Source: Bacillota bacterium
Lineage (GTDB): Bacteria > Bacillota > Clostridia > Christensenellales > UBA1242
DNA length: 64,000 bases
Assembly: GCA_009780065.1 (NCBI GenBank)
Contig: WRAS01000001.1
Location: 273,661-337,660, forward strand
Direction: 5' to 3'
Shown: positions 29,068-48,310 of the stretch, piece after piece
How the letters are laid out: the number at the start of each line of letters is the position of its first letter
Numbering within the stretch: the stretch's first letter is position 1
Program-made: the position numbers and the translations under genes
Notes under the pieces: model-generated
What the model was told of the DNA's origin: nothing
The model's database searches: none
The model's input: only the letters and a program-made list of their open reading frames with translations

Positions 29068-29120
29068 GGTATAAACAAAAATATTTGTCATTTTTGCAAA
29101 AACTGCTTATACTTTTAAAT

Positions 29121-31556
29121 ATGAAGAAAATTTTATCCTTTTTTTTGATAGGGTGCTTTTTGATTGTCTCCCTTGTAATGGCAGGTTTTGACAGGGTCGG
29201 TATACAATCGGTAAATGCGACAATTGGTATATCACCGCATTACACTATTCACAGAGTCGGCTACGTTTATGACGATGGCGTTGGTGCGAATGTTCAACAA
29301 TCTTTGTTTGAAACGACCGGCATCAATCGTGATGTTGCAGACGAATTATTGAAAATATTGCGTGCAGTTTCTGGAAATAACTTGAATGCAACGCGCGATG
29401 CATCGCATTTTTCTGAATGGGCGCGCGGCGAGCCAGACGAACTGGTGCCAACAGCAGAAACTGTTAACATAACAATAATGGTAGAGGGGGTTCCAACGCC
29501 CACACCATTTCCACTTTATCAATTTTTATCGGGCTCGGTATATTTGCAACTTTTTGAACAAATTGGCACGGCACCGGGTAATCTGAACCCATTCCCAGCC
29601 AGCGAAGCCGATATTATTTCACAATTCACTTCACGAATGTGGCAAGTTGTTTACATGCGTGACGGGGTGGTCACGTTATGGATGACAGAACCATACAGAG
29701 CAAGTCAATTCGGTGGAACCCAAGGAACAATTGTTCAATACGCGGATTCATTACTGCGACCAAATTTGCTTAATGATTTTACTGGGAACACAGATGGTGA
29801 TTTATCGGGCGTTGTGGGTGGTGTGCTGGGATATTTTCCTGCTGCGGTTTCGACAATCGTGCCTATGGACGAAATAGAATGGCAGGACCAAGATAACCAA
29901 CCAATAGTATTTGGGGGGAGTCTGGCAGAGGCAAGACCCTTTAATAATCCTCAAACACAAGATATGATTTGGATACCATCGCATTACGAAGTTGCACGCC
30001 AAACTGGCTGTACAGCGAGATGGGGACAACGAAGCGGTGGTCTTTTAATAAATTGTAACAGACATGGTCTTTGGCAGATGAGTGGTTTTGACAGAAGTTT
30101 TATGAACCACGTTGGCTGGACAGTCGCTGGAGTAACAGATGCATGGTTGCGCTCGGGATCTACAAGCGGTGCGAATGTTGCATCTTCCATATGGCATGGT
30201 ACTGGGAACGCGTCTGGTAATGGCAGCGGGTGGCCGCAAAGTTTCGGAATCCGTCCAGCAATTCATATAGACATCGCATCTTTACTTGAAACACCGCTAG
30301 AGGCACCAGTTGTTACTGTAACTCGTCCGGCGGCAAATCAATTGATTGCTTCGTGGAATGGAATACAGGATGCAGTTTCTTATCGTATTCGTGTAAATAA
30401 CAGTGGCGCATGGCAGACGCAGACAGCCACAACATTTGTACACACAATAACGACTACAGGTACAACGACTTTTGAGGTTCAAGCCATAAGTGCAGGTCAC
30501 AACCAAATATATTCTACAATTACAAGTGAGAGTTTCACGGTCAACCAGGAACAACTAGTGGCACCTTCCAACCTGGAAATTAGTTCAGCAGGTGTTCTCA
30601 CTTGGGATTCAACCAATTCGCTGGGAACATACATTGTCTATCGAAATAACACAGCATACAGCACAGAATTAAATGCGACATCATGGACAATTCCAACCAC
30701 TTGGCCATCTGGTACATGGAATTTGCAGGTCCGTGCGACCGCACCATCATCGCATACATGGTTCACAAATAGTAATCTCAGTACGGGGACAACCCATCAA
30801 ACATGGACTGTGACAAGAGTGATTCAAGGTGTTCAAACACCTAACACAGTTGTAGATGGTAAACAATTTACACAACCAAATAATCCAACCCCACCTGCGG
30901 GACATCATTTTGTTCATTGGGCATTGGGCTCGCTTACTGGTGCGGAATTTGACTTCACAACACCAATTACGAATGACATTTATCTTTACGCTGTATTTGC
31001 AAAAAATACACACATTGTAACCTTGGTTATTAATGGGGTGGACTTTCCGCAGGCACCGATTGATTGGGGTACAAACTTTGCGCGACCACCTGACCCAACG
31101 CCGCCTAGCGGTTATCAATTTCAATGGTGGGCACTTGGTTCTTCGGATGGTAGTTTTCATTTCTTTGATAACACAATTACCTCGGACATACGCTTGTACG
31201 CTGTTTTTTCACTCCTTACTAATCATGTTCTTACATTAATGGTAAATGGTGTTCCACAAAATCTTCCGCCAACCAATATCGTAAATCTTTCTGTATTCGC
31301 ACCAACACCACCTGTTGGCTATATATTTTCTGGTTGGGCAAAAACCGAGGGTGGGGAAGTCGTACATACACCATATCAGGGTTCAATAACGTTGACGGGA
31401 GATTTAACACTTTTTGCTGTATTCACACCACACGTTGATTACGGTAGCGCCGATGGTCCGTCGTTGATATTGATTGTTGGGGCAGTATTGCTGGGTTTCC
31501 TTGTCATAGGCGGCATTACAATTTTCTTTGTGTTACGCAGAAGAAAGAGTGTTTAG
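29121..31556 (+). CDS. Surface protein: DUF6273-like domain, FN3-like and InlB-B repeats, C-terminal TM anchor
   Basis: Signal peptide; IWIPS..EV…WLRSG…GIRPAIH; GHHFVHW…LYAVF repeats; TM plus RRRK. Confidence 0.8.
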   Translation: MKKILSFFLIGCFLIVSLVMAGFDRVGIQSVNATIGISPHYTIHRVGYVYDDGVGANVQQSLFETTGINRDVADELLKILRAVSGNNLNATRDASHFSEWARGEPDELVPTAETVNITIMVEGVPTPTPFPLYQFLSGSVYLQLFEQIGTAPGNLNPFPASEADIISQFTSRMWQVVYMRDGVVTLWMTEPYRASQFGGTQGTIVQYADSLLRPNLLNDFTGNTDGDLSGVVGGVLGYFPAAVSTIVPMDEIEWQDQDNQPIVFGGSLAEARPFNNPQTQDMIWIPSHYEVARQTGCTARWGQRSGGLLINCNRHGLWQMSGFDRSFMNHVGWTVAGVTDAWLRSGSTSGANVASSIWHGTGNASGNGSGWPQSFGIRPAIHIDIASLLETPLEAPVVTVTRPAANQLIASWNGIQDAVSYRIRVNNSGAWQTQTATTFVHTITTTGTTTFEVQAISAGHNQIYSTITSESFTVNQEQLVAPSNLEISSAGVLTWDSTNSLGTYIVYRNNTAYSTELNATSWTIPTTWPSGTWNLQVRATAPSSHTWFTNSNLSTGTTHQTWTVTRVIQGVQTPNTVVDGKQFTQPNNPTPPAGHHFVHWALGSLTGAEFDFTTPITNDIYLYAVFAKNTHIVTLVINGVDFPQAPIDWGTNFARPPDPTPPSGYQFQWWALGSSDGSFHFFDNTITSDIRLYAVFSLLTNHVLTLMVNGVPQNLPPTNIVNLSVFAPTPPVGYIFSGWAKTEGGEVVHTPYQGSITLTGDLTLFAVFTPHVDYGSADGPSLILIVGAVLLGFLVIGGITIFFVLRRRKSV

Positions 31557-33289: not shown

Positions 33290-35242
33290 TTAATTTTTTT
33301 GCTGTTTGCTTCTTCTGGAAAGAAATAATATAAGCAAAGCAAGAATCAATAAACCAACCAAGGATCCCGCACCTACAATCCAAGGGACAAGGTTGCAATT
33401 GTTGCCATTGACGAGTGCCTCACTAAAACGTGCGTAGAGGGTAATGTTTTCCGTCATTTCAAGAAATTCATTTAGCGGAATTCCATATGCATCAAATACT
33501 AAATTTCCACCAGACGGTGCATCCCAAAAGCCCAGAAATTGACGCCCTGTGATAGAAGGTAACTGGGTCAAAGTATTTACGGTTGTTCCATTTACATGTG
33601 AAATGTTCAAAGGTAATCCCACTCCATATGGTGTATCTGCAAGAATAAAATGAAATGCAATTGTGAAAGTCAAACCATTCCAAACGGCGTATAGTGTTTG
33701 ACTGCCATCAATTGTCCAGGTGTCACCTGCAAGATATTCTACTGTGGTGGAGGTACTGCTGGTTGTCCAACCAAGAAAAGTGAAACCTGGCCTGGTTGTT
33801 GATGGTAGGGTAAAGGTTGTACCTGGTGCGTCTATTACAGGCGGTAACTGTTTACCTTGTTGTGTATCAAATATTATGGTGGAATCAAGGATACTGTGTC
33901 CCCAAACAACTGCAAATATAATTCCATTAATCACGCATAAGTTCCAGTCCTCGTGCCATCCGTTAGGACCAGGAGAGAGGTGTGCTGTATATATTGTCAG
34001 GCTAGCAGGATTGGCAAGAAACACACCTTCCCCAATTTCAATAACATTGTTTGGAATTACTACACTGGTTAATTGATTATCTGTAAAAGAATATTCTGCG
34101 ATTTTTGTTACGTGGTTTGGGATTGTTATATTAGTTAATTGACTAGAAATAAATGCCGCATTACCTATGCTGGTAAATTGGTTTGGTAGTTGCGTGACAA
34201 AATTGTTTGTGATGAAAGGGTTATTGTTGAAACCTTGAAAAACAGTAATTTGTGCAGGTAATTCAGGCATTTGGGTAAATTGATTGAATGCAAATGCTGA
34301 TTCCGCAATGTACGTTACGCTGGCTGGGATAGTTATTGTTGTTAACTGGTTGTATTGAAATGCCCACTTTTCAATATCTGTTACACCATTTGGAATATGC
34401 ACACTGGTTAATTCGTTGTCTTCAAATGTATATGCTGCAATATGTGTTATTTTGTCTGGGATGACTATGTTGGTTAATTGATTATGTCGGAAGGACAAAC
34501 GTCCAATATGAGTTAAGTTATCTGGGAGATTAACATTGGCTAATTGGTTGGAAATGAATGCCCCTTCTCCAATATATGTCACAGTTTCTGGAATCACTAT
34601 ACTTGTCAACTGATTATCGTGGAATGCATAATTTCCAATGTGGGTTAGACTGTCAGGGAGTTGGACACTGGCAAGTTGATTGTGGCCGAATGCAAAATCT
34701 TCGACAATTGTAACTCCGTCTGGAATTATTATATTGGTTAAATTGTTAACACCGAAAGCAGAATTCCCAATACTAGTCAGGTTGTCAGAAATTTGTACAC
34801 TGGTTAAGTGATTGTATGCGAATGATGCAAAGCCTATATACGTCACACTATTTGGAATTACTAAGGTTGTTATTTGGTTATGCCCAAAGGCTAAATCTCC
34901 AATACTTATTACGGTATCTGGGATTGTTACCTCAATTACTCTGCTCAATAAAAATGCATTATTGCTGATGGTTGTAACTGGGAAACCATTAATTGTGGCA
35001 GGGATATTTACAATAAGGTCAGTTTGAAAAGGAACTTGACCAGGGCCAATAATCGTCACTTGGCCATTTGCGGTTGTAAAGTTGAAATCTGCTACAACAT
35101 GTGCGGCTTGAGTTGGTCGTGATGATGTTACAATAATCACAACGCTTGTAATTGCGATAAAAAGAACTAATAACCCGACCCCTAATAAAATGATTATCCT
35201 TTTCGGGGATTGCACCGCGGAGAATTGTGTTTTATTTTCCAT
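33290..35242 (-). CDS. BspA-type LRR surface protein with InlB-B repeats and C-terminal TM
   Basis: More than ten tandem 'NQLTSIVIPxxVTxIGxxAF' 22-aa repeats; RPGFTFLGW…LYAVW. Confidence 0.88.
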   Translation of the reverse strand: MENKTQFSAVQSPKRIIILLGVGLLVLFIAITSVVIIVTSSRPTQAAHVVADFNFTTANGQVTIIGPGQVPFQTDLIVNIPATINGFPVTTISNNAFLLSRVIEVTIPDTVISIGDLAFGHNQITTLVIPNSVTYIGFASFAYNHLTSVQISDNLTSIGNSAFGVNNLTNIIIPDGVTIVEDFAFGHNQLASVQLPDSLTHIGNYAFHDNQLTSIVIPETVTYIGEGAFISNQLANVNLPDNLTHIGRLSFRHNQLTNIVIPDKITHIAAYTFEDNELTSVHIPNGVTDIEKWAFQYNQLTTITIPASVTYIAESAFAFNQFTQMPELPAQITVFQGFNNNPFITNNFVTQLPNQFTSIGNAAFISSQLTNITIPNHVTKIAEYSFTDNQLTSVVIPNNVIEIGEGVFLANPASLTIYTAHLSPGPNGWHEDWNLCVINGIIFAVVWGHSILDSTIIFDTQQGKQLPPVIDAPGTTFTLPSTTRPGFTFLGWTTSSTSTTVEYLAGDTWTIDGSQTLYAVWNGLTFTIAFHFILADTPYGVGLPLNISHVNGTTVNTLTQLPSITGRQFLGFWDAPSGGNLVFDAYGIPLNEFLEMTENITLYARFSEALVNGNNCNLVPWIVGAGSLVGLLILALLILFLSRRSKQQKN

Positions 35243-35427
35243 TTCCTTTGTATTCCTTTTCACAAGAATTATATATAACATATGCAAATTAATCAAATAA
35301 AAAAGCAATATTTATTCTATGTGTCCATAGTTCGCAGAGTAACATTATGCCATTTTAAACAATAAGTATTGACATTTTGAATATACTATGGTAAAGTTAT
35401 GGAAACTAATTTTACAAAGGGGGCGTC

Positions 35428-38064
35428 ATGAAAAAGGCATTGCTCTTTACGGGAATTTGTATACTTGTTACATTTGGTGTTCTTGCACTGGTTTTATCCA
35501 GTATTAACCTTGGTTTCCTTGCAGGAAATCGTGTAGGCAGCATCAACATAACATTTGCAAGTAACCCGCCTGCAGGTGTCATCGCGGCCAACGAAGAAGT
35601 CATCGTAGAAGCACCACTTTATTTGAACAACAGAACGGACGAAGGTGAAACCAGAAATCGCAGAACACGTGTTCCTGCATCTGATACTTTCAGTTTCCCT
35701 GGGCACAGATTCGTGCACTGGTTTGACGTCGAAGCGGACGAGCCACTTAGAAACCACGTTCCACGCGGTCTAACCGAAATGGACGAGGGTCGTACATTTA
35801 TCGCAATATGGGAGGCTATTACCTACCGTATTAACTTCAACACCACAGTTGCAAGCCCAACCAACCCAAGCCCAATCAACATCACATATGGCGAGGTTAT
35901 CCCAACACTTCCAAGCCCAACCCGTCACGGTTTCTTGGCACCAACATGGTGGACCGAGCGTAATGGTAACGGAACCGAAATTACCGCAGGTAACGTATTT
36001 AATCAAACAAGCAACCTTAACGTATTTGCACACTGGATCCAGGATCCAACCGTTCCCCAAAACCTTTTCCAAATTCGCTTTAATCTAAGATACGCAAATG
36101 CATCTATGCCAAGTGGACATGGTCTTACAAGACAAGTAACCACACACAACCTTTTCGAGGCACTTCCAATGCCTGCAACCAGACCAGGTTCAGGTTCCAC
36201 ACACATTGGATGGGAAATGCGTGACCCAAATGCTAATAACGCACTTGTAGCCGTAGGTAATAACCAGGCCGTTGCAAACATCCGTCTTGCAAACCAGGCG
36301 CAGGTAACCGTATACGCACTATGGCACCATGCACCAGTACAACAAACTTACACAGTTTCATTTAACCCTGCAGGTGGTTTGGTAAATGGTTCAACCGCAA
36401 TCCACACAATTACACCAATTGGGGTCGCACACAGTAATATGGGTAACCCAGTTCCAGTCCCAACACGTACATCACACACATTCCTTGGCTGGCAATCTCC
36501 GGCTGGAATCCTATTCGGGGTGGGTACAACACTTAACACAGTGGTTAACACAATTACATCTGGTAATGCAATAACACTGACTGCACAATGGCAGCAAGAT
36601 GCAATTCCTGTACCAACATTTACACTTACATTTGATGGGAACAACGGAACAGTTGTTGGTCCATCAGTAATAACCGCAAGTACAGCAATTGGAAACCTTG
36701 GGCAACAGGTTCCACACGCAACACGTGGCGGACACACACTAACAGGTTGGCATTTCCCGGCGGCTGGCATAACATTTGGAACAAACGCAACTCTTAACGC
36801 AATTACTAACACAATACCATCTGGCAATGCGGCAACTCTTGTTGCACAATGGCAACAAGATGCGGTTGTTCAACCACAATGGAATCTTAACTTTAACCCA
36901 AATAGTGGAACAATCAACGGTTCAACCGCAATCCACAGCGTACCGAACGTAGGTGCACAATTCAGTAACCTTGGGCATGTTGCACCGGCTGCGCAAAGAA
37001 CTGCTCACACTTTGACAGGATGGACATGTGGTGTAACCGGATTCCTTCGTGCACCAAACGCAACATTCGCAACTATTACTGGCGGTATCGCGTCTGGTAC
37101 AACAATTACACTTACCGCACAATGGGATGAATTGCCAATTACAATTAATTTCATTCTTAACGGTGGTACAACTTCTAACACAACAACATTTACAAACATT
37201 CGTCAAAGCAACATCAACACCGTAACATTCCCAACTGTTACACGTGCAAGACACAATCTCACTGCGTGGAATCTTGGTCACCTTGGCGGAACTGCGATTG
37301 CAACAAACAATCAACAAGCAATTCTTAACCACGCAAGAACAACTGGCTCTAACAACGTTTCCGTACATGCAAACTGGACCGCACAAACCTTTACAATCAC
37401 ATACCGCGCAACAAACGCAACGATATTTGATGGTAACACAAACCGAGGATCACAGTGGGTGGTAGGAGTTCAAGGTAACAACCACCACACAATTCCGCAC
37501 AGAGTAGAAAGACCAAACGCAGGCGGATTCACGTACTCGTTCGAAGGTTGGTTCTACAGATGGGGTGATGCCGCTAACCAAAGACGTCATATCCAAAATT
37601 ACGAAGACCTTAGAGCATTTATCTTAACGCGTTATGGTGCGAACGTACTTGCAATCACTATTGATGCAGGTTGGACACGTACAGCAATCGGCGGTGGCGG
37701 AACACCAGCACCAACACAATTCCAATTCTTTATGCACTTTATGGATGGAACAAACCGTTTCGTAAGAAGCAGATTGATGAGCGCACAAGAAACACCATTA
37801 CTTTCCGATATCTTCGCGGTTCAAATATCTCCAGGTGTTTACAGAAACGACGGAAGACTAACGCTAGAAGGTTATTCCCGTGTTGCATGGATTTACCAAC
37901 GTCTTGGTACTACACACAGATGGCCGGCTGGTTCCCACATTCCTGGTTATGTCAACCCACACCACAGAACAATGCATCAACACGACTTACTCAGCGGTAA
38001 CTCGCAAACCATTGACGGTGTACGGGTAATCCACCTTCACGCAGTTTGGATAAGAAACAGATAA
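35428..38064 (+). CDS. Secreted/surface protein with multiple InlB-B (Listeria-Bacteroides) repeats
   Basis: N-terminal hydrophobic segment; repeats 'F…GG…P.R..HT..GW…TLTAQW'. Confidence 0.85.
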   Translation: MKKALLFTGICILVTFGVLALVLSSINLGFLAGNRVGSINITFASNPPAGVIAANEEVIVEAPLYLNNRTDEGETRNRRTRVPASDTFSFPGHRFVHWFDVEADEPLRNHVPRGLTEMDEGRTFIAIWEAITYRINFNTTVASPTNPSPINITYGEVIPTLPSPTRHGFLAPTWWTERNGNGTEITAGNVFNQTSNLNVFAHWIQDPTVPQNLFQIRFNLRYANASMPSGHGLTRQVTTHNLFEALPMPATRPGSGSTHIGWEMRDPNANNALVAVGNNQAVANIRLANQAQVTVYALWHHAPVQQTYTVSFNPAGGLVNGSTAIHTITPIGVAHSNMGNPVPVPTRTSHTFLGWQSPAGILFGVGTTLNTVVNTITSGNAITLTAQWQQDAIPVPTFTLTFDGNNGTVVGPSVITASTAIGNLGQQVPHATRGGHTLTGWHFPAAGITFGTNATLNAITNTIPSGNAATLVAQWQQDAVVQPQWNLNFNPNSGTINGSTAIHSVPNVGAQFSNLGHVAPAAQRTAHTLTGWTCGVTGFLRAPNATFATITGGIASGTTITLTAQWDELPITINFILNGGTTSNTTTFTNIRQSNINTVTFPTVTRARHNLTAWNLGHLGGTAIATNNQQAILNHARTTGSNNVSVHANWTAQTFTITYRATNATIFDGNTNRGSQWVVGVQGNNHHTIPHRVERPNAGGFTYSFEGWFYRWGDAANQRRHIQNYEDLRAFILTRYGANVLAITIDAGWTRTAIGGGGTPAPTQFQFFMHFMDGTNRFVRSRLMSAQETPLLSDIFAVQISPGVYRNDGRLTLEGYSRVAWIYQRLGTTHRWPAGSHIPGYVNPHHRTMHQHDLLSGNSQTIDGVRVIHLHAVWIRNR

Positions 38065-38071
38065 CAGATTC

Positions 38072-38095
38072 AAAAAGCACCTTCGGGTGCTTTTT
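38072..38095 (+). terminator. Intrinsic terminator
   Basis: AAAAAGCACC-ttcg-GGTGCTTTTT. Confidence 0.9.
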
Positions 38096-38140
38096 ATGTC
38101 GAATTTGCATGATATAACTTTTGTTTCGCATGTAATTAAT

Positions 38141-39055
38141 ATGCTGTACGAAATTTTACCCACAGAAATTTGTCATGCACTCGCACGACTGGATATCAAT
38201 CACGTTTATGAATTGCGGCTGCGTTCCAATGCACCCGCGGTGGTTTGTCTTGGTGGTAAAAATTTTTATCTTACAAAGGATGGACCATCGCGCGACACAA
38301 AAAGCGCAATCTTTGTTTCGCGTAATGACTTGGACGCAATTTTGCATCGTGCGTCGAATTATTCTATTTATGCGGTTAACGAACAAATTAAGCAAGGGTT
38401 CCTCACCGTCAAAGGCGGTATCCGAATAGGTATTGCGGGCGAGGTTGTGGTGGAAAATAACCAAATCAAAACAATAAAAAATATCCAAGCCCTGAACATT
38501 CGTGTTCCGCACGAGGTTCGCAATTGTTCATATCCGGTGCTGGGCTATATCTTTGAAAGTCCGCGACCATTGAAGACCCTGATAATTTCTCCGCCTGGGG
38601 CGGGAAAGACCACATTTCTTCGCGACCTCGCATTGCAAATATCTTATCGATATCAATTATTGAATACACTTATATTAGACGAACGCGGCGAAATCTGTGC
38701 CACACACCTTGGCGAAAACCAATTGGATGTTGGTCATCTTACGGATGTGATTTCAGGGTCATCAAAGATATATGGCTTTGAAAATGGAATCCGTAGTATG
38801 CGCCCAGATATAATAATAACGGACGAGGTTGCAACCGCATCCGACATAGAAATGTTGCGTCTGGCCGCGCGTAGCGGTGTTTCGGTGATTGCTTCGGTTC
38901 ATGCATCCGGTATCGAAGAAATTCGTAACAAGCCATATTTCAAAGACATCATCGCGGAACAAATTTTTGACCGTTACATTGTTTTAGGTGTGCGCGACAG
39001 TGCGGGTCATGTAATGGGTGTTTTTGACAGAAATCTGAAATTGCTCGCCATGTGA
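38141..39055 (+). CDS. spoIIIAA: Stage III sporulation ATPase AA
   Basis: ELRLR, GFLTVKGGIRIGIAG, SPPGAGKTTFLRD, DERGEI, IRSMRPDIIITDE. Confidence 0.95.
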   Translation: MLYEILPTEICHALARLDINHVYELRLRSNAPAVVCLGGKNFYLTKDGPSRDTKSAIFVSRNDLDAILHRASNYSIYAVNEQIKQGFLTVKGGIRIGIAGEVVVENNQIKTIKNIQALNIRVPHEVRNCSYPVLGYIFESPRPLKTLIISPPGAGKTTFLRDLALQISYRYQLLNTLILDERGEICATHLGENQLDVGHLTDVISGSSKIYGFENGIRSMRPDIIITDEVATASDIEMLRLAARSGVSVIASVHASGIEEIRNKPYFKDIIAEQIFDRYIVLGVRDSAGHVMGVFDRNLKLLAM

Positions 39056-39087
39056 AAATTCGAATTAACCTTGCATACACATATAAA

Positions 39088-39585
39088 ATGTATATCATTA
39101 TGTTATTAGTGGCACTGGTTGTGCCTATAGTATTCGGCTATTATATATATAGAAATTATAAATGCAGAAAGATCTTTTTTCAAGACACAATTGCATTCTG
39201 CGATCATTTGTCAGTCGAAATTGGATTTTCAAAAAATAACCTTGGTTATATTATTGATACGTATAAAGATTCTTACGCGCAACATTTTTATAATACGCTT
39301 GTGGGATACAAGACCTTGCTAGATAATCGTATTGAAATCACTCATGGTGCTGTGAATTCGGTTGTGTGGCGCGGCCTTAAACCCGCCGAAATTACAACAA
39401 TCACAGATTTTTTATATGAACTGGGACGCCATGGCAGTCACGAAGAACAATCCAAAATCGCATCAAAGCGCGTAACATTTGACCATTTCTTTGACCAATC
39501 TAAAACAGCGCTGCGACGTGAAGCGTCTATTTATTTCAAACTTTGCATAATTTTAGGTATAGCATTAGTAATTTTACTTGTATAA
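39088..39585 (+). CDS. spoIIIAB: Stage III sporulation protein AB
   Basis: Operon position; LGR…EEQ…YFKLCIILGIALVILLV tail. Confidence 0.8.
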   Translation: MYIIMLLVALVVPIVFGYYIYRNYKCRKIFFQDTIAFCDHLSVEIGFSKNNLGYIIDTYKDSYAQHFYNTLVGYKTLLDNRIEITHGAVNSVVWRGLKPAEITTITDFLYELGRHGSHEEQSKIASKRVTFDHFFDQSKTALRREASIYFKLCIILGIALVILLV

Positions 39586-39602
39586 GCGAAAAGGAAGGGA
39601 AG

Positions 39603-39800
39603 ATGGGAATAGAAATTATATTCAGAATCGCGGCAATAGGAATTTTGGCAAGTGTAGTTTCCAGTGTTCTTAAACAATCCGGCAAAGACGAACTTGCAAC
39701 CTTTGTTTCTTTGTCTGCGGTTATAATTTCACTTTTACTGGTTTTGGATATGGTGGCAGATTTATTCAGTACAGTGCGAAATCTTTTTTCGTTGTACTAG
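39603..39800 (+). CDS. spoIIIAC: Stage III sporulation protein AC
   Basis: IIFRIAAIGIL…VLKQSGKDELA. Confidence 0.93.
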   Translation: MGIEIIFRIAAIGILASVVSSVLKQSGKDELATFVSLSAVIISLLLVLDMVADLFSTVRNLFSLY

Positions 39801-39806
39801 GTTGCA

Positions 39807-39834
39807 ATATTCGACAATAGCGCACACATAGTCT
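39807..39834 (+). promoter_or_regulatory. Internal sigmaE-like promoter with Spo0A box
   Basis: ATA-N17-CATAGTCT; TTCGACA (reverse complement of TGTCGAA) at 39810-39816. Confidence 0.5.
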
Positions 39835-39840
39835 AAAGAC

Positions 39841-40227
39841 ATGGAAGTCTTTCAACTCATTGGCATCGCGCTGCTTACTGCGGTGGCGGTGATTATTCTT
39901 CGTCCGCATAAACCAGAAATAGCAATGATTGTCAGTTTGGCGGGCGGGCTAATGGTTCTGTTTTTGTTTGTGGAGACCCTCAGTGGGGTTATTGGTGGAT
40001 TTTCGCAAATCGCAACTCAAACGGGTGTTCCAATTACATTATTCAGTGCATTACTTAGAATAATTGGAATTGGCTATTTAACAGAATTTGCAGCCAATAT
40101 ATGCGAAGACAGCGGTAACCAAAGTCTGGCACACAAAGTAGTTATAGGGGGAAAGATTCTTATCCTTGTCATGGCGATTCCAATAGTTACTAGTTTAATT
40201 GACATAATCGTGGGGGTGCTGCCATGA
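39841..40227 (+). CDS. spoIIIAD: Stage III sporulation protein AD
   Basis: LRIIGIGYLTEFAANICEDSG…GGKILIL..AIP. Confidence 0.93.
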   Translation: MEVFQLIGIALLTAVAVIILRPHKPEIAMIVSLAGGLMVLFLFVETLSGVIGGFSQIATQTGVPITLFSALLRIIGIGYLTEFAANICEDSGNQSLAHKVVIGGKILILVMAIPIVTSLIDIIVGVLP

Positions 40228-41495
40228 ATTATGAATTTGAATTAAAAGAATACAAACGCAGAATTTCTCCGCAAAAAATAAAACAAAAATCAACCCCGAA
40301 AAAGATTCTTCGGCGTGTTATCGTTTCACTTACCATTCTTGCTGTTGTTTTTTCATTAATGTTGATGCAGGACGTTGCGATTGCAATCGCAAGCACAAAC
40401 CAAAACATTATCGAAGAACTGGAACGTAATGTAAACGATAGCCTAAACAACATCGACTTTGGTGAATTGGATGATATCTTGGCAGGTATTGGTTCGGGGT
40501 TTAATTTGTTTGGCGAGGACTCGTTCATGCAAAGAGTCAGCCGAATCATCAGTGGCGAATTTCAAACCGAACACAACAATATGTTTTCTGCATTGTTTGC
40601 ATTGTTCGGTTCCGCAATCTTTGGATTCTTGCCAATCATTATGTTGATTGTGGGCGTTGCGATATTTTCCGGTCTTATGCAGGCGCTTCGTCATCATAAC
40701 TCGGGTGAAGGGGTTCGAAACATCATCCACTTTGTTACGTACTCTGCAATTGTTGTAATTGTGATGTATGGGGTTGCATCTATGATAGCCACGGTAACCG
40801 GAACACTTAACAGCATCCGTACACAAATGGATATAATATTCCCCATTTTGCTGACATTGATGGTTGCATCCGGAGGGCAAGCCAGTAGCAGTGTTTATCA
40901 ACCTGCAGTGGTTATTTTGTCCAATGGTGTGATGCAAATTTTCACACTAATTGTTATGCCATTATTTATAATTACTTTGATATTTTCAATTGTTGGCAAC
41001 TTGTCCAACACAAACCGCTTTGACAAATTCGTCTCGTTTTTTACCAGTGCCTATAAATGGATACTAGGTCTAACATTCACAATCTTTCTTTCGTTCTTGG
41101 CTATCCAAGGAATCACTGCCAGCGCTCATGACGGTATATCAATCCGAGCCGCAAGATTCACAATCAGCAGTTACGTCCCATTCCTTGGCGGTTATTTGTC
41201 CCAGGGTTTTGACTTGGTGCTTGCGTCTTCCATTCTTATTAAAAACGCGGTGGGTTTGGCGGGCTTATATTTACTGCTCGGGGTGGTTCTTGCACCAATA
41301 ATTCAAATAGCGGTTTTCAGTCTTGGTCTAAAACTGGCCGCTGCCATAACACAACCAATCGCGGATGAACGCATTTCAAATTTTCTGTCGACGGTCAACA
41401 AGGCATTTTCAATGCTGGCTGCAATATTAATCGGTGTTGCCTTTATGTATTTTTTAACCATTGGTCTAATCATTATGACGGGAAATGTTCTCTAA
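40224..41495 (+). CDS. spoIIIAE: Stage III sporulation protein AE
   Basis: PILLTLMVASGG…SSVYQP, RAARF…VPFLGG, IKNAVG. Confidence 0.93.
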   Translation: MNYEFELKEYKRRISPQKIKQKSTPKKILRRVIVSLTILAVVFSLMLMQDVAIAIASTNQNIIEELERNVNDSLNNIDFGELDDILAGIGSGFNLFGEDSFMQRVSRIISGEFQTEHNNMFSALFALFGSAIFGFLPIIMLIVGVAIFSGLMQALRHHNSGEGVRNIIHFVTYSAIVVIVMYGVASMIATVTGTLNSIRTQMDIIFPILLTLMVASGGQASSSVYQPAVVILSNGVMQIFTLIVMPLFIITLIFSIVGNLSNTNRFDKFVSFFTSAYKWILGLTFTIFLSFLAIQGITASAHDGISIRAARFTISSYVPFLGGYLSQGFDLVLASSILIKNAVGLAGLYLLLGVVLAPIIQIAVFSLGLKLAAAITQPIADERISNFLSTVNKAFSMLAAILIGVAFMYFLTIGLIIMTGNVL

Positions 41496-41507
41496 AAAGG
41501 AGTTTGC

Positions 41508-41972
41508 ATGAGTCCATGGCTTCTATCCATTGTCGGAGTAACCATCATCGGCGTGTTGGCGGAATTGCTGTTGACGGATTCTCCAATGTCAAAATTCGTG
41601 CGTGGAATTTACGGGTTTTTTATATTACTGGTCATCATACAACCGTTGCCAGGTTTTTTTCGCGGAGACATTGAAATAGGCGGTGGCGTGGATTATAACT
41701 GGGAACTGATTGGCACGATTAATACCCAGAATGCTGCTGCCACACAAACACGGATGGAAAATACTCTTAGATTGGCTGGCTTTGACAATGTTCTGGTTAC
41801 CGTGGTACATGACCGCAATGCCAGTTCGTTTCAAATTGAAAATCTTTTTATCAATGCAACAGGGGTAATCATACGGGAAGATCGTGAACACATAAACACC
41901 AAAGAAGAAATCATACGTATAGTTACAACAACATTAAGAGTCGATGAATCAATTATTTTCTATATCGGATAA
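41508..41972 (+). CDS. spoIIIAF: Stage III sporulation protein AF
   Basis: WLLSIVG…ELLL…KFVR…LVIIQP; operon position. Confidence 0.85.
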   Translation: MSPWLLSIVGVTIIGVLAELLLTDSPMSKFVRGIYGFFILLVIIQPLPGFFRGDIEIGGGVDYNWELIGTINTQNAAATQTRMENTLRLAGFDNVLVTVVHDRNASSFQIENLFINATGVIIREDREHINTKEEIIRIVTTTLRVDESIIFYIG

Positions 41973-41984
41973 GGAGGGGGAACA

Positions 41985-42698
41985 ATGTTAAAAGTAGAGC
42001 GCGAGGACAATGACAATGTAATGTCCAGAACCACACTAGGCGGTGAACCAAGACAAACAAACAGGGAAGAGGTCTCACTACCACTATCAAGCGAAGCCCC
42101 AAAAATGGTGCAACCACCAAAACCGCAACCCAAGACTGAACCCGTAAAATCAACAGGCAAGGGCTCGTTTCTTGCGCGACTTCGCAAAGTCAAGAACATA
42201 GAATTCTATGTTGCAGGCGGAGTGATTTTATTGATGATCGCAATCTTTGCAACTAATTTCTTGGGTGGGGTATCCAATGACCAACCTAACCATGCAAACT
42301 GGAACCAGATGCAAACAAACTTTGCCCGTGACATGGAAGCACGTTTGGTACAAACTCTGTCCCAGGTTCGTGGTGCAGGCCGTGTAGAAGCCATGGTAAC
42401 CGTGGCGGGTTCCGCAACATTGGAAATTGCATATAACATTGACGAGCGCACCGTAACCCAAACCGGCGCCAATGGTGTATCCACAACTACAATTACTGTG
42501 GTGCGTACACCGGTAATTATAAATGACCGCGGCGGTCCGCGCCCATTGATTCTGATGGAAATTAAACCTCAAATCCGTGGGGTGGTAATCGTGGCACAGG
42601 GTGCGCACGACATTGGGGTACGACTTGCAATACTTCGCGCGGCTCAGGCTCTTATCGCGGACAATACAGTCAATATCGAGGTTTTATCCGGAAGATAA
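41985..42698 (+). CDS. spoIIIAG: Stage III sporulation protein AG
   Basis: EARLVQTLSQVRGAGRVEAMVT…PQIRGVVIVAQGA. Confidence 0.92.
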   Translation: MLKVEREDNDNVMSRTTLGGEPRQTNREEVSLPLSSEAPKMVQPPKPQPKTEPVKSTGKGSFLARLRKVKNIEFYVAGGVILLMIAIFATNFLGGVSNDQPNHANWNQMQTNFARDMEARLVQTLSQVRGAGRVEAMVTVAGSATLEIAYNIDERTVTQTGANGVSTTTITVVRTPVIINDRGGPRPLILMEIKPQIRGVVIVAQGAHDIGVRLAILRAAQALIADNTVNIEVLSGR

Positions 42699-42715
42699 AT
42701 AATAAAAAAATACTT

Positions 42716-42745
42716 GTCATACCAAACAAATGAAACACATATTAA
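42716..42745 (+). promoter_or_regulatory. SigmaE-like promoter upstream of spoIIIAH
   Basis: TCATA-N16-CATATTAAT. Confidence 0.45.
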
Positions 42746-42779
42746 TGGCTACAGTTTAAAAAATTAAAAGGAGCGTCAC

Positions 42780-43325
42780 ATGGAAATCGTCGAACAACAA
42801 CCAGAAGTAAAGACCAAAAGACGTATTAACTTCCGAGGAGCCTTCACAAAAAGAAGAAAGATGATGATATTGGCAGGTATGTTTGTATTGCTGATTGTTA
42901 CTGGTTATCTTAATTTCACCCTTAATAACAGAGCGCCAGAGGTGGGCGGGGACTACAGGCAGCAACAACACGTATTCCAAATATTCCGTCAAACAAGAAC
43001 AGCCGAACGTACAAGCCAACTTGCAATACTAGAGAACATAGCCCTATCAACATCTGGTTACAGCGAACAAGCCCGTCTTAATGCAGAAACACAAAAACTA
43101 GAACTTCTTCAAGCCATCGCCTTCGAAACAGCCGCAGAAAACCTTATCCTTGCACTTGGATTCCAGGATGCCATTGTATCAAAAAACGGCGGAAACATTA
43201 ACGTACTGGTACGTACACCCGAAAATTTAACCCCGGTCCAGGTCACACAAATCCGTCTTGCACTAAACTCTGTTGCCAACCGCACAATCGATATTGACAA
43301 CATCTTTGTATCACCAATCGAATAA
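42780..43325 (+). CDS. spoIIIAH: Stage III sporulation protein AH
   Basis: LIVTGYLNF…F…R..R..R…E.LI.A.GFQDAIV. Confidence 0.9.
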   Translation: MEIVEQQPEVKTKRRINFRGAFTKRRKMMILAGMFVLLIVTGYLNFTLNNRAPEVGGDYRQQQHVFQIFRQTRTAERTSQLAILENIALSTSGYSEQARLNAETQKLELLQAIAFETAAENLILALGFQDAIVSKNGGNINVLVRTPENLTPVQVTQIRLALNSVANRTIDIDNIFVSPIE

Positions 43326-43442: not shown

Positions 43443-45851
43443 ATGACTCCACTAAAGAAGAAACTGGGATGGATTGGATTATGTGTCGGCATATTTTGCG
43501 TTAACGTAATTGCGGTAACATCCGTATTCATATTGGCAAACCGCGGTCCCGTTGCGGGCGATCCTACGCCGCCTACCCCGCCGCCAAGTTTTCCATACCC
43601 AAATTATATGCAACATACTTTGCTAAATCTTGATGGAACAATTAACGGCCAGGTTGCGGCAAACATTTTGCGTGATTTGAATTCAACAAATACGGCGGTT
43701 AATTACCGCGGTACAATTTTTAGATTAATGTCAACTTACGGAGTTCAATTTCCGGGACCAAATGCTGTTAGGCCTTTTGCATTATCAACTAGTTTATGGC
43801 GTATCGTTGCTGTAGAAGGTAACAATCTGGTAATATATTCTACACATGGTTATAATGTATCATTTTTAAATGATATTCGTACTACGTTGAATAACGATTT
43901 CAATAGTTTACCTAATGAAATCAGAACCAATCCGCTGATAATCCCAACAGGGAATAGACCAGATGGTGGTGCAGGTATTGTGGGTGATAGACTTTGGCTA
44001 CCATCGTTGACAGAACTAAATCAATGGTCGGTGGTAAACCAACGTCATGGGCGTTTTAGGCAGGGTGGTTGGAGTAGTCCTCCTATTTTTAATTTTTATT
44101 TTGCTGCTTGGTTACGTTCAGGAAACAGACATGTTATACACACAGGATCTAGCGTTACTACCCTTAACCCACACCAAATGACCCAAAGGCAAGCATTGCG
44201 GCCGGCAATGTTATTAAGTATTCCATTATTGCAACAGGCAGCACAAGGATATACAGAAAGAAACAGGTATCTCTTTGATGTTTCGATTGATGGAAGTGTT
44301 TCTGTAAATGAAGATGTTAGATTGTTCATCAAGGAAAATATACTAGAGAGTCAAGTTGCTAGTTCTGGTCATGTACATTTGGATTGGATACCTTTCAGAT
44401 TTTTTCCTAACTTGGGTGATAACACTACATCACAAGCACTTAGTCAAACTTATTTTTCAATAGGTTTAAACTTAAACAATGCAACTTTACATACGGTTGC
44501 AGTAGATCAATATGTGCATTTTACTGGCATTCCAGATAATGCTCGTGTTTTTGATAACGTTACTTTGCTTGATGATTGGGAAAGAATAAATACAAGCGGA
44601 AGATTTAATCAATTTTTAATACCAGCTACTGAGACGGTAAACGGAATATTTTTAGTTTCTAATTCCGGACCATTATTCGGGGGACAAAGCACTATTCACT
44701 CCGGGACACGAGTTGCTCTAGTGCACATATATCTCGACATGATTGAACTATTCCCTGAACTCTTTGCCTCTATTGAATTGCCGGCTAATGATACAGGTTT
44801 TGCGATGGGTAATTTTACTGGAATCACGCGTGGCACAAACTTCTTCTCACCCATAGCACCAATAAACGGCACATTCACTTTTCAAATGACCCTTGCACCA
44901 AGTCACAATCAATCCAACCCAACCATAACCCTTGCCCAAAACGGAACACTGGGCACACCAACCCGTGTTGGCGATGTGTTGACATTCACGGTAACAAATG
45001 TGACCGGGCCAATAACAGAGGCAGACTGGACGGTCAGCGGTGTTAATCTGAACACATACAACGTTGCATCCCCAACAACAGATGCAATAGGTATCACATT
45101 CAGCGGTTCAAGTGTAGCAACAGTCCAACACGGAGGAAGTTTCACATTCACAATGACATTGACACCTGCCAACGCCGAATTGGTATTCAGTTTATCTCTT
45201 CTACGTCATGGTTCACTTAGTCAATCAAGAATAGGTAACGTAATTACATTTACCGTAAGCAACGTTTCTGGTCATATAACTCCGTCAGATTACAACTTTG
45301 TACATGGAGGAACGGTTGTTACTGTCTCCACAGGTGGGTCTGGCGATGGCTGGACAATTCCAACAACGTCGACAAACATACCCGCACTTGGCGGTTTCAC
45401 CTTCACACTAACCCTCGCTGCCAGCCACAGCCAATCCAATCCAATTGTATACCTCGCCCATGGTGCAGGTAATCACAATGTTATTCAAACCAACCGTGCT
45501 GGGAATGTTATTACATTCACCGTCACAAATGTGACTATGAACATAAACCCATCCCACTTCAACGTTGCTAACGTTGTACAAAACACATACAACGTCACTT
45601 CCGCCAACTCTGGCCTTGGGTTTACAATAACCCAATTATCTGCAACAACCGTGGAACACGGCGGACACTTCTCATTTGTATTAATCCTTGATGAAAACTT
45701 CTCTAACTCTAACCCAACCCTAACATTTACTGGCCCAGGTACCGCTGTAATACATGGATCTGGGTTGTCTCGTGCGATTACAGTAACTGGTGTTACTGGC
45801 GACATAATTGCATCCATGTTTGCAATCGGTGGGGTTGTGCAGAATCCTTGA
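43443..45851 (+). CDS. Membrane-anchored surface protein: DUF6273-like domain plus four beta-sandwich repeats
   Basis: LWLPSLTEL…WLRSG…ALRPAM; repeats 'HGGxFTFxxTL…SNP…R.GNVITFTVTNVTG.I'. Confidence 0.75.
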   Translation: MTPLKKKLGWIGLCVGIFCVNVIAVTSVFILANRGPVAGDPTPPTPPPSFPYPNYMQHTLLNLDGTINGQVAANILRDLNSTNTAVNYRGTIFRLMSTYGVQFPGPNAVRPFALSTSLWRIVAVEGNNLVIYSTHGYNVSFLNDIRTTLNNDFNSLPNEIRTNPLIIPTGNRPDGGAGIVGDRLWLPSLTELNQWSVVNQRHGRFRQGGWSSPPIFNFYFAAWLRSGNRHVIHTGSSVTTLNPHQMTQRQALRPAMLLSIPLLQQAAQGYTERNRYLFDVSIDGSVSVNEDVRLFIKENILESQVASSGHVHLDWIPFRFFPNLGDNTTSQALSQTYFSIGLNLNNATLHTVAVDQYVHFTGIPDNARVFDNVTLLDDWERINTSGRFNQFLIPATETVNGIFLVSNSGPLFGGQSTIHSGTRVALVHIYLDMIELFPELFASIELPANDTGFAMGNFTGITRGTNFFSPIAPINGTFTFQMTLAPSHNQSNPTITLAQNGTLGTPTRVGDVLTFTVTNVTGPITEADWTVSGVNLNTYNVASPTTDAIGITFSGSSVATVQHGGSFTFTMTLTPANAELVFSLSLLRHGSLSQSRIGNVITFTVSNVSGHITPSDYNFVHGGTVVTVSTGGSGDGWTIPTTSTNIPALGGFTFTLTLAASHSQSNPIVYLAHGAGNHNVIQTNRAGNVITFTVTNVTMNINPSHFNVANVVQNTYNVTSANSGLGFTITQLSATTVEHGGHFSFVLILDENFSNSNPTLTFTGPGTAVIHGSGLSRAITVTGVTGDIIASMFAIGGVVQNP

Positions 45852-46420: not shown

Positions 46421-48310
46421 ATGCAACTTGCAATTCTTTTTGGCGTATTTCTCGTGGTTGTCGCGCTATTTATGCATCACACACGGCGTGGGCGGTTTTC
46501 ACGCACGATCCCCTCAACGTGTCAACTTCGCACACATGATGCTATTGCACGTATCAAAATTCCAATTGAATTCCGTAATCAATCGCATTACGTCTTTAAA
46601 AAACTGATTCACGAAATAAAGATTTTCAATGCCATGCGCGTGGTTATGCCGCACACAGGGCGCAGTATCACAGAAAACCTAAAAATCCTAGGCAGGTTAC
46701 ATATAGACCCAAAGTGCAACATTCCCCTTGAGGATCCATACACACGCTTGTTTTATGCCTATTCGTCATTGACATTGCATCTGCGCGAAAAGGATTTTAT
46801 AAGGCGGAGGCAATTGCTTAAAAACTCGCTTCCAATATTTGTTAATCAGTTATTTATAAAACAAATAATTAAAATAAATAAAATAATTACCAAGCGATAT
46901 TATCCATGTCCGCAACCGCTTTACAAACTGTTGGGTGGTGAATTTTTGTCACGCCAGTCAGAGTCGAATTATGAAATCAAGGTTGGCGGTGCAAAGGAGA
47001 TTTTGAATACACAATTTTCTGATTCTTATATTTTGCAATATTATAAAGACATTCTTGTTAAAAGTTATGTTGACAAACATTTTCCTGTTAAATGTTTTGA
47101 ATTGAAAACAAATAAAAAAACAAAGTTTATTTGGAAAACCAATATGGATAAATTGGAACTTAACATGTCTCAAACCGCGGACATTTTTTATTATATATGT
47201 CACACATCCAAAAGAACGTTTGCGATTTATGTGCCGGATGTTAAAAAAATGTTCGGTACAAACATGACTTCGCGCAATCCGGATTTGGAAATTCACATAA
47301 CAATCGGAACCGATGCAAAGATATATGTTGTCAATGGTACGTCCAAAGCCGAAGTACAATCCATAATTCAAAAACTCACGCTGGCTGACTCACGTCTGGA
47401 TTATCTTTTAAACGATACCGAAATCAATGCAAACAAAAGAATTCAAAATATTATCACCAAAATGCATAACGCAAAGTCAATAACAGGTGAGGGGTTGAGG
47501 AAAAAATATTTGGCCACTACAAAAATTATTCCGACGCTTTATCTACCGACTTTGACATATGTCGTAGAGAGTCAAGAGGACTTTTTCGCTATTATAGATA
47601 ACTTCGATAATTATGAAAGATTAGCATCATTAAAGATTCAATTCAACATTATAATACTGTTCTCGTCTCAAAATCATGTCGTGCGCGAGATTATTGCTGC
47701 GTTCACAAATACGCGCGAGGTCTATGACCTTATTAATCTGGGAATCTTTATGTTCTTTGTGGACAAGATGACAACGCATACACATGTCGTTAACTTTTTA
47801 TCACATATGAATGCTGCACAAGAGGAATCAAAACGTTTCATAGGTTTGACCGCGCCAACCTCAAATCATAAAAAGATTATAGTGGCAACGGATGAAAAAA
47901 ATGGATCGCAAAATATTTTCGTTACCAGTTCGCTTAATAAATCCATGCCAACTAGTATCTTTATACCCATGGACATATCCAAATCGCACGAAAAATCATT
48001 TTTCGCACTTCCGTCTGTTATAAAAAAACAATCTGGCGGGATAAAAATTACTTCGCAGAAAACTGGACATTCTTATATTCTCCAATTACAAAAGGGTGTC
48101 AAAGTTTACACATCTTGCGGTCTGCCAATTGATACGCAAGAGTATCAGACGGATAAACTTATTTTTGTTATGGAAACGGTTCTGAAACCGTACGAGGAAA
48201 AAATCTTTGAAATTAAAAAATCAAAAGAAGACAGCAAAGAGGAAATTTCATGCAACAAGCACAAAATTTGCAAATCAGAAAAAAATAAATTGCAACACAA
48301 AGGTGCCTAG
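46421..48310 (+). CDS. Hypothetical protein with N-terminal TM
   Basis: 629-aa ORF; no motif recognised. Confidence 0.7.
   Translation: MQLAILFGVFLVVVALFMHHTRRGRFSRTIPSTCQLRTHDAIARIKIPIEFRNQSHYVFKKLIHEIKIFNAMRVVMPHTGRSITENLKILGRLHIDPKCNIPLEDPYTRLFYAYSSLTLHLREKDFIRRRQLLKNSLPIFVNQLFIKQIIKINKIITKRYYPCPQPLYKLLGGEFLSRQSESNYEIKVGGAKEILNTQFSDSYILQYYKDILVKSYVDKHFPVKCFELKTNKKTKFIWKTNMDKLELNMSQTADIFYYICHTSKRTFAIYVPDVKKMFGTNMTSRNPDLEIHITIGTDAKIYVVNGTSKAEVQSIIQKLTLADSRLDYLLNDTEINANKRIQNIITKMHNAKSITGEGLRKKYLATTKIIPTLYLPTLTYVVESQEDFFAIIDNFDNYERLASLKIQFNIIILFSSQNHVVREIIAAFTNTREVYDLINLGIFMFFVDKMTTHTHVVNFLSHMNAAQEESKRFIGLTAPTSNHKKIIVATDEKNGSQNIFVTSSLNKSMPTSIFIPMDISKSHEKSFFALPSVIKKQSGGIKITSQKTGHSYILQLQKGVKVYTSCGLPIDTQEYQTDKLIFVMETVLKPYEEKIFEIKKSKEDSKEEISCNKHKICKSEKNKLQHKGA

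Follow-up and report, generated by a model that had tools for sequence, protein, structure and literature searches.

The stretch of DNA analysed here, called the window throughout, is 64,000 nucleotides long and comes from contig WRAS01000001.1 of a Bacillota draft genome (assembly GCA_009780065.1). The gene in question, at 35428..38064 on the forward strand, encodes a predicted surface or exported protein of 878 amino acids (aa), in which an earlier reading of the letters without database searches (the sequence-only reading) had noticed the absence of Lys after the initial MKK. The translation of the open reading frame (ORF) bears this out: Lys is found at residues 2 and 3 only, next to 49 Arg, 36 His and 15 Tyr. 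At the 6.0% Lys of exported proteins in related genomes (hereafter kin), the probability of zero Lys in 875 residues is 3e-24, and chance is excluded as the cause of the Lys-free protein. The features of the gene are as follows:

35428..38064, + strand: focal gene, 878 aa, with repeats of the Flg_new (Listeria-Bacteroides) type and a predicted N-terminal anchor (ORF and Pfam profile match)
35428..35520, + strand: N-terminal MKK and hydrophobic stretch, predicted signal peptide or membrane anchor (hydrophobicity rule)
35824..36033, + strand: top-scoring Flg_new repeat, residues 133-202 (Pfam profile)
36463..36492, + strand: repeat motif TRTSHTFLGW (residue 346), His at the family's Tyr position
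36721..36750, + strand: repeat motif TRGGHTLTGW (residue 432), His at the family's Tyr position
36997..37023, + strand: repeat motif RTAHTLTGW (residue 524), His at the family's Tyr position

Residues 133-202 match the Flg_new profile (PF09479) with 59.1 bits (curated cut-off 27, E 4.7e-16), and about seven more Flg_new-like repeats were recognized beyond them by eye or motif pattern. The two Lys would lie on the cytoplasmic side of the membrane. All three motifs that the sequence-only reading had singled out for their His were confirmed, and homologues mostly have Tyr there: the residue that precedes T[FL]xGW is His in three of three cases in the focal protein, whereas it is Tyr in 25 of 30 matches from database homologues and in 18 of 25 from kin. 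Across all proteins of the window's genome (29 matches), the same position is held by His in 10 cases, Tyr in 6, Phe in 5 and other residues in 8. The focal protein lacks the conserved Tyr of the Flg_new family; this is a substitution within the family and no reason to exclude membership.

Composition and topology across the genome

The genome that carries the window (G000) comprises 1.2 Mb in 18 draft contigs and has 40% G+C, with an estimated completeness of 91.5%. Its 1123 genes, called with a custom script, were sorted into classes by hydrophobicity, and the composition of the class with an N-terminal signal or anchor was taken with the first 45 aa removed. The cytoplasmic class (n = 725) contains 8.47% Lys, 4.90% Arg, 2.06% His and 3.16% Tyr, the signal/anchor class (n = 90) 2.79% Lys, 5.86% Arg, 2.89% His and 3.19% Tyr. 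The latter is bimodal: of its 70 members with 150 aa or more, 38 have less than 2% Lys, compared with 14 of 513 cytoplasmic ones, and many of its Lys-rich members are plainly cytoplasmic proteins misfiled by the hydrophobicity rule. Altogether 112 proteins (at least 150 aa) with less than 2% Lys are scattered over contigs C1-C11 amid Lys-rich genes. Lys depletion is a property of the genome, not of one gene; the genome-wide split of Lys, Arg, Tyr and His by topology, named beforehand as a check that could refute the idea of the sequence-only reading, left the bias standing.

Pooled, the low-Lys exported proteins of G000, a set picked by Lys content, contain 0.74% Lys, 2.94% Tyr, 0.26% Cys, 5.30% Arg, 2.55% His and 8.63% Asp plus Glu, against 6.0, 6.0, 0.92, 2.19, 0.90 and 12.44% in the pooled exported proteins of kin. 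Exported Arg is at about 2.4-fold the kin level, His is about tripled and Trp about doubled; Gln stands at 4.1% compared with 1.8-3.3% in the samples from the family, and Asn, at 7.3% against 6.1-9.3% in kin, is neither raised nor reduced. The replacement of Tyr by His or Phe proposed in the sequence-only reading holds in comparison with homologues and kin; it does not hold within the genome, where the Tyr contents of the exported and cytoplasmic classes given above are practically the same. Lys, Tyr and Cys, the titratable residues, sum to 3.95% in the exported set of G000 and to 12.92% in kin. A model that uses textbook pKa values puts the change in net charge between pH 7 and pH 11 at 3.8 units per 100 aa in this set (-2.4 to -6.2) and at 10.9 units in kin (-4.2 to -15.1). 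The median K/(K+R) of exported versus cytoplasmic proteins is 0.76 versus 0.72 in kin and 0.18 versus 0.64 in G000. The share of AGR among Arg codons is 0.37 in exported and 0.30 in cytoplasmic genes, which fits a one-step change from AAA to AGA and is too weak to weigh.

The division is also seen within single proteins and across the membrane. In the low-Lys exported set (chosen for low Lys), 77 Lys and 38 Arg were counted in the short n-regions on the cytoplasmic side; in the mature parts the count is 108 Lys to 1131 Arg, or a K/(K+R) of ~0.09. Polytopic membrane proteins were oriented by their total positive charge, without regard to the Lys/Arg ratio, before their sides were compared; K/(K+R) inside and outside is then 0.59 and 0.34 in G000, 0.68 and 0.28 in G002 of the same genus, 0.77 and 0.76 in four other genera of the family (pooled), and 0.55 and 0.61 in six other families of the order (pooled).

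Housekeeping exported proteins are depleted as well: the MetQ/NlpA lipoprotein has no Lys at all, and signal peptidase I, SpoIIR, a solute-binding protein and a cell-wall amidase follow the same trend. Signal peptidase I has two Lys in all, one of them in its KR box, and a class B penicillin-binding protein (PBP) retains STFK and KTG, both of which we take to be catalytic motifs, as we do the KR box. Our reading is that the residual Lys in exported proteins would be catalytic. Of two further sporulation proteins, SpoIID gave a sub-threshold match only, and SpoIIP was not found when searched for. A limited group of exported proteins stays Lys-rich:

C2:210250-210993: PdaA-like deacetylase, 8.9% Lys (best family match under the curated cut-off)
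C2:146865-147713: second deacetylase, 8.9% Lys
C1:164225-165328: S11 DD-carboxypeptidase, 8.7% Lys
C3:70373-71086: CwlD-like amidase, 6.8% Lys (best family match under the curated cut-off)
C9:29266-31662: class A PBP, 7.3% Lys
C1:23886-25154: VanW-domain protein, 9.5% Lys
C7:12763-14337: lipoprotein without family, 10.9% Lys

In G001-G003, Lys makes up 7.2-11.3% of the PdaA-like protein and 5.8-8.7% of the class A PBP; in G138, the genome of a second Lys-poor lineage described below, the values are 10.6% and 7.9%, respectively. Since both are Lys-rich in G138 too, their exemption recurs in that lineage. The CwlD-like protein breaks the pattern with 1.8% Lys in G138, and a search of G138 with the S11 protein of G000 as query did not find that protein. 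Several of these families act on the spore cortex in Bacillus, and by this analogy the Lys-rich exceptions may work in a compartment sealed from the gut fluid.

Within the window itself, predicted exported and cytoplasmic products lie side by side at an even G+C of 0.37-0.43:

2715..4802, ORF: conserved 695-aa cytoplasmic protein, 8.5% Lys
23837..26218, + strand: M64-like metallopeptidase with BspA-type leucine-rich repeat (LRR), predicted exported (Pfam), no Lys after residue 247
26290..29067, + strand: phosphoenolpyruvate (PEP) carboxylase (Pfam), a cytoplasmic contrast in the same gene cluster, 6.2% Lys
29064..31556, + strand: predicted exported Flg_new protein (Pfam), 1.2% Lys
33290..35308, - strand: predicted exported protein with BspA-LRR and Flg_new (Pfam), 1.5% Lys
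38087..43325, + strand: spoIIIA-type sporulation operon directly downstream of the focal gene (Spore_III_AA by Pfam)
43443..45851, + strand: predicted exported 802-aa protein without Pfam family, Lys at 5, 6, 7 and 297
46421..48310, + strand: Lys-rich neighbour without Pfam family, 10.3% Lys
50840..54907, - strand: predicted exported 1355-aa protein, 7 Lys, six of them after residue 2

The counts made by eye in the sequence-only reading proved largely accurate. Its Lys-rich cytoplasmic proteins are represented by PEP carboxylase and the ORFs at 46421 and 2715, the single Lys after the N-terminus of ORF 43443 is residue 297, and the estimate of about six Lys in the 1355 aa of ORF 50840 agrees with those listed. 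The M64-like protein, said to be Lys-free over its last ~540 aa, lacks Lys in the last 546. For ORF 29121 the depletion was right and the number was not: five Lys, rather than about four, follow the N-terminus. The claim that the M64-like protein reads LADEH for LADEY also stands. This motif, HEFGHSFGNLADEH (LADEH, residue 314, nt 24776-24790), has His where the solved M64 peptidases 3p1v and 4df9 have Tyr, both reading LADEY at the aligned position.

The membrane and exported members of the spoIIIA-type operon are Lys-poor too (0.9-3.6%); a profile match was obtained for Spore_III_AA, and the putative genes AE to AH were named by reading the gene order. In two same-genus genomes, the ORF that follows the homologue of the focal gene (L004, L005) starts by eye like SpoIIIAA (compare window 35428-39055), and the order of focal gene and spoIIIAA-like ORF seems to be conserved in the genus. 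The product of 2715..4802 is taken, from its N-terminus, for a probable polynucleotide phosphorylase (PNPase). A 151-aa ORF at 5669-6124 (- strand) has eight Cys with N-terminal CxxC pairs and, on visual inspection, resembles the zinc-ribbon proteins of insertion sequences. Elsewhere in this 1.2-Mb genome, giant predicted surface proteins are encoded at C1:109781-121114 (3,777 aa, 15 Lys) and C1:201830-213145 (3,771 aa, 6 Lys), and further very large ones at C1:95914-103605 (2,563 aa) and C7:3572-8743 (1,723 aa), with Lys within 6-15 each; open frames of kin with the same repeat type reach 8,896 aa.

Relatives, recurrence and habitat

For comparison, 50-195 kb were sampled from each of 23 other genomes; G008 and G021 yielded too few exported proteins to judge, and a further genome, G013, represented by one 2.9-kb contig, was left out. 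Homologues of the focal protein in three same-genus genomes have 0.4-1.0% Lys, 5.2-8.2% Arg and 1.3-2.2% Tyr. The homologue in G019, of the sister genus, is 34% identical and has 5.2% Lys, 2.0% Arg and 7.0% Tyr, and eight database sequences have 3.0-9.1% Lys and 4.3-8.8% Tyr. The comparison of orthologs had likewise been named in advance as a possible refutation, and homologues outside the lineage turned out to lack the depletion. Signal/anchor proteins with less than 2% Lys account for one of 75 across 12 other genera of the family and two of 33 across six other families of the order, as opposed to two of five in G002, three of four in G003 and six of 12 in G138 (195 kb sampled). The Lys-poor trait is restricted to the window's genus and recurs in the more distant G138.

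The MetQ lipoprotein allows the substitutions to be followed in an alignment. Its loci in the Lys-poor group are L022 (G000:C8:46971-47774), L168 and L087. In the nine nearest database sequences, 45-100% identical, Lys numbers 0-3, Arg 11-17 and Tyr 3-10; in the next homologues, at ~41% identity (21 sampled of 111), the numbers are 13-15, 1-3 and 12-14. In columns with a Lys consensus, 39% of the cells of the Lys-poor clade have Arg; in Tyr columns, 45% have Phe and 19% Trp. We rely on these columns instead of a tally of substitutions between exported proteins of G000 and kin, a noisy measure drawn from 10 protein pairs that share 22-43% identity.

When one genome per species was scanned, L087 emerged as the sole record with the same MetQ signature (0 Lys, 16 Arg, 4 Tyr). 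A Streptomyces MetQ (L135) also has no Lys; it is strongly acidic (24 Asp, 27 Glu). The isolate code of L087 stands for Cornitermes sp., hindgut compartment P3 (PMC7886697). The exported ORFs on its contig have 0.7-0.8% Lys and the cytoplasmic ones 8.6-12.5%; the genome that carries it is G138. Cornitermes is a litter feeder. The window's own DNA is present almost wholly in two sequencing runs from two studies, one of which may be its source; both are labelled termite gut metagenome, which fits the insect gut that the sequence-only reading had predicted, to be looked for in the sample metadata. In a study whose termite hosts include litter, humus and soil feeders, P1 is called highly alkaline, and P3 and P4 of humus and soil feeders moderately alkaline or circumneutral (PMC7024585).

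Identity of the probable PNPase to that of G000 orders the Lys-poor and Lys-normal genomes as follows:

G002: 78%, exported proteins Lys-poor
G003: 76%, exported proteins Lys-poor
G019: 71%, exported proteins Lys-normal
G014: 61%, exported proteins Lys-normal
G138: 59%, exported proteins Lys-poor

Because the Lys-normal G019 is nearer to G000 than the Lys-poor G138 is, this points to two gains of the Lys-poor state, or to a loss in between. In a FastTree phylogeny of MetQ, which leaves open forks at 53 of 129 inner branches, the sequence of G138 groups with those of the genus in a single clade (local support 99%). Only two of 121 family genomes yielded a MetQ, so that the gene is of no use as a family-wide marker and may have moved between lineages; the clade may stem from gene transfer from one termite-gut lineage to another, or else from compositional attraction. 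Other Lys-poor, Arg-rich MetQs are scattered among Lys-normal ones, and the starred branches force at least two changes, with many forks open.

Outside the clade of the window, MetQ clusters with 0-1.2% Lys and 4-6.5% Arg were seen (P0136, P0387, P0389, P0298, P0300, P0302, P0311, P0319, P0327 and P0341). The source names those of P0136 and P0387 Defluviitaleaceae metagenome-assembled genomes, and the Defluviitaleaceae are listed among dominant termite-gut taxa (PMC7024585). The MetQ L147 (Oscillospiraceae bacterium isolate Nm470_bin132) is intermediate, with 4 Lys and 9 Arg; most others have at least 5 Lys and at most 8 Arg.

Probable alkaline adaptation and its alternatives

We consider it probable that the whole extracytoplasmic proteome of this small-genome, spore-forming, Clostridia-like bacterium of the termite gut is compositionally adapted to alkaline gut fluid. 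The observations are those given above: a composition that depends on topology, is limited to a lineage and recurs, and the label of the habitat; pH as the selective agent is what we infer. Selection would have stripped from extracytoplasmic parts the side chains that ionise between about pH 8 and 12, namely the Lys amine, the Tyr phenol and the Cys thiol. Lys would have been exchanged mainly for Arg, which keeps the charge, and Tyr for Phe, Trp or His, none of which titrates in that range, while Asp and Glu were lowered too. The outcome would be an exoproteome whose charge and salt bridges stay nearly constant from neutral to strongly alkaline pH, as expected of a bacterium that resides in the alkaline hindgut of a higher termite or passes through it. 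Lys would be kept at catalytic positions, on the cytoplasmic face of membranes, and in a few exported wall enzymes of a perhaps sealed compartment. Since Arg is slow through SecY and kin prefer Lys in exported proteins, the exchange for Arg runs against a known cost of export. In our reading, the mature proteins outside the cell are what selection acts on, and a lapsed export advantage of Lys contributes.

Several observations weigh against this interpretation. The machinery by which classical alkaliphiles maintain pH homeostasis is not evident: the antiporters NhaC (PF03553), CPA (PF00999) and Mrp (PF03334) were found in none of five genomes of the genus (65-92% complete; 65-88% for the four besides G000), and in 0, 1 and 0 of 24 family genomes, respectively, other antiporter families not having been searched. 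The named relative, L087, comes from P3, not from the highly alkaline P1. The rise of Arg and His and the fall of Asp and Glu are the opposite of a textbook alkaliphile surface. Asn is prone to deamidation at high pH, and exported Asn is not reduced. Lys is kept at a high level in some exported proteins, among them a class A PBP with a possible vegetative role. Finally, gene calls and hydrophobicity classes are both crude, with contamination of the classes in both directions, and the choice of the low-Lys exported set by its Lys content makes its Lys value circular, though not its Tyr, Cys, Arg and His values.

CPA antiporters were found in 15 of 16 other families of the order. G000 also has two V-type ATPase loci (C1:64623-66273 and C7:43193-44999; subunit I and double-hairpin c subunits); three other genomes of the genus have one match each, and most of the family have none at E<=1e-10. 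As a marker of the Lys-poor state the V-type ATPase was rejected, being patchy (7 of 24 family genomes) without a split between Lys-poor and Lys-normal genomes.

High pH would also worsen covalent capture, and alkaline adaptation therefore overlaps with an explanation by chemical armour, according to which Lys amine, Tyr phenolate and Cys thiolate were removed to escape tanning by quinones or oxidised humic and polyphenolic compounds. The three nucleophiles do drop together in the pooled sets above, and a termite gut, with litter, humus and soil feeders among the hosts, would be a suitable place. His and Trp react with quinones or oxidants, and yet they go up about threefold and twofold; Arg rises although it is a target of dicarbonyls (PMC8998448). 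We regard this explanation as unlikely. The bolder claim, that the exoproteome was purged of all high-pH nucleophiles as armour against humic or polyphenolic capture, with no fewer than two and perhaps three independent origins among gut lineages, is in our view doubtful. Export kinetics alone could act if an alkaline outside cancelled, through deprotonation and the proton ratchet, the advantage of Lys over Arg at SecY. The Lys preference in Sec substrates of neutrophiles and its reversal in Bacillus halodurans (PMC9110029) agree with this, as does the preference for exported Lys in kin (median K/(K+R) above). A lost advantage, however, predicts drift to the cytoplasmic value of 0.64 and not the ~0.09 of mature parts in the set selected for low Lys; the shifts of Tyr, Cys, Asp and Glu are left unaddressed, and an alkaline exterior is needed all the same, which makes kinetics alone rather improbable. 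Evasion of a Lys-specific protease, or of another Lys-directed attack by host or neighbours, would account for Lys being the most fully removed residue, and is very improbable given that Arg, the other trypsin-type site, triples, that Tyr gives way to Phe and Trp, which are still chymotrypsin-type sites, and that even short outside loops of membrane proteins are depleted. Of the pressures offered by the sequence-only reading (an alkaline and/or polyphenol-rich habitat such as an insect gut, or protease avoidance), the insect gut and the direction expected of alkaline adaptation have found support, and the quinone and Lys-protease variants have been weakened by these same changes in His, Trp, Arg and Tyr.

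A Lys auxotroph might spare the residue on proteins that it sheds, and the diaminopimelate decarboxylase domains PF00278 and PF02784 were indeed not found in G000 (at its 91.5% completeness). PF02784 was, however, not found in 20 of 24 family genomes either, among them the Lys-normal G014 and G016, and Lys auxotrophy therefore fails as the cause; moreover, cytoplasmic proteins hold 8.5% Lys, Arg in place of Lys costs more nitrogen, and the loss of Tyr is left unexplained. Such an economy is hardly credible. A DapA-type match lies at C1:351448-352275 of G000, with one TAG within the matched span. The draft state of the genome, with its 18 contigs and custom gene calls, could suggest mis-binned contigs, mutational bias or gene-calling error. 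Against such an artefact, low-Lys genes sit amid Lys-rich ones on C1-C11, G+C is even along the window, the cytoplasmic n-region retains Lys within single proteins, and the pattern is the same in three other genomes of the genus and in public database proteins, so that its probability is negligible. Avoidance of ubiquitylation, known from lysine deserts (PMC10169902), was considered and rejected: the depletion spans housekeeping exported proteins and outside loops of transporters, not injected effectors, and nothing suggests delivery into a eukaryotic cytosol.

Significance and comparison with known systems

If alkaline adaptation is the cause, the chemistry of a habitat can remodel one topological half of a proteome and leave the other half untouched. 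About 100 proteins, including the giants of 3,771 and 3,777 aa, have 0-1% Lys compared with ~6% in close relatives, and since the exchange for Arg goes against the export cost predicted by work on Sec transport, strong selection is implied. Sequence alone suffices to read the signature, which could serve to spot uncultured genomes whose owners live in alkaline gut compartments, to find binding proteins and enzymes hardened against alkali by nature, and to tell which exported proteins are shielded from the environment. Were chemical armour the true explanation, the Lys share of exported basic residues would be a sequence-only gauge of niche chemistry as well as pH, and Lys-keeping exported proteins would mark sealed compartments, such as the engulfed forespore.

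The principle is already known for single enzymes and for the secretome of B. halodurans. What appears to be new is that Lys is purged almost totally from ~100 proteins, that Tyr and Cys are lost in parallel, and that this occurs in uncultured termite-gut anaerobes and recurs in a second lineage; a literature search, with subscription journals outside its scope, did not turn up a purge of this kind in bacteria of the termite gut. In the alkaline midgut of Lepidoptera, digestive enzymes and the cores of Cry toxins are Arg-rich and Lys-poor and work at pH 10-12. These are individual host or toxin proteins, whereas G000 presents the whole exoproteome of a symbiont.

The closest match in direction is the pattern described for alkaline-adapted secreted enzymes by Shirai et al., as summarised in PMC8153356, with Lys, Asp and Glu lowered and Arg, His and Gln raised. 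In G000, exported Lys is reduced, Arg, His and Gln are raised and Asp plus Glu reduced in the same way; Asn, raised in that pattern, is not. For M-protease and alkaline cellulase K of alkaliphilic Bacillus, Arg-Asp ion pairs have been proposed to be stabilising (PMC8153356, PMC4704807). Shirai et al. follow single enzymes along a phylogeny, whereas in G000 every exported or outward-facing class is affected, Lys falls to ~0.7%, and Tyr and Cys fall too. Lys depletion is also treated as typical of alkaline-adapted secreted enzymes in work on Alkalitalea saponilacus, a soda-lake anaerobe with three glycoside hydrolases of 1.7-4.7% Lys for which Arg does not compensate (PMC13591233). In contrast, the focal protein has 0% Lys past its N-terminus, and exported Arg in G000 is well above that of kin.

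At the scale of a secretome, the nearest parallel is B. halodurans. Sec substrates of neutrophiles favour Lys since Arg is slow across SecY, and the secretome of B. halodurans shows the reverse (PMC9110029). B. halodurans, whose exterior is alkaline, shares with G000 a secretome-wide change from Lys to Arg, and the kin of G000 behave like the neutrophiles. In B. halodurans, however, the change is a shift of distributions (PMC9110029), whereas in G000 it reaches the ~0.09 of the low-Lys mature parts and includes Tyr. Also unlike B. halodurans, G000 is an uncultured gut anaerobe, in which the antiporters that were searched for (NhaC, CPA and Mrp) were not found. The classical alkaliphile surface consists of acidic exposed proteins with fewer basic residues, Arg and His included (PMC7143216). 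In both cases the exposed parts differ from the cytoplasmic ones and Lys is lowered; G000 differs in that Arg and His go up and Asp plus Glu go down, to 8.6% compared with 12.4% in kin, which amounts to a different solution.

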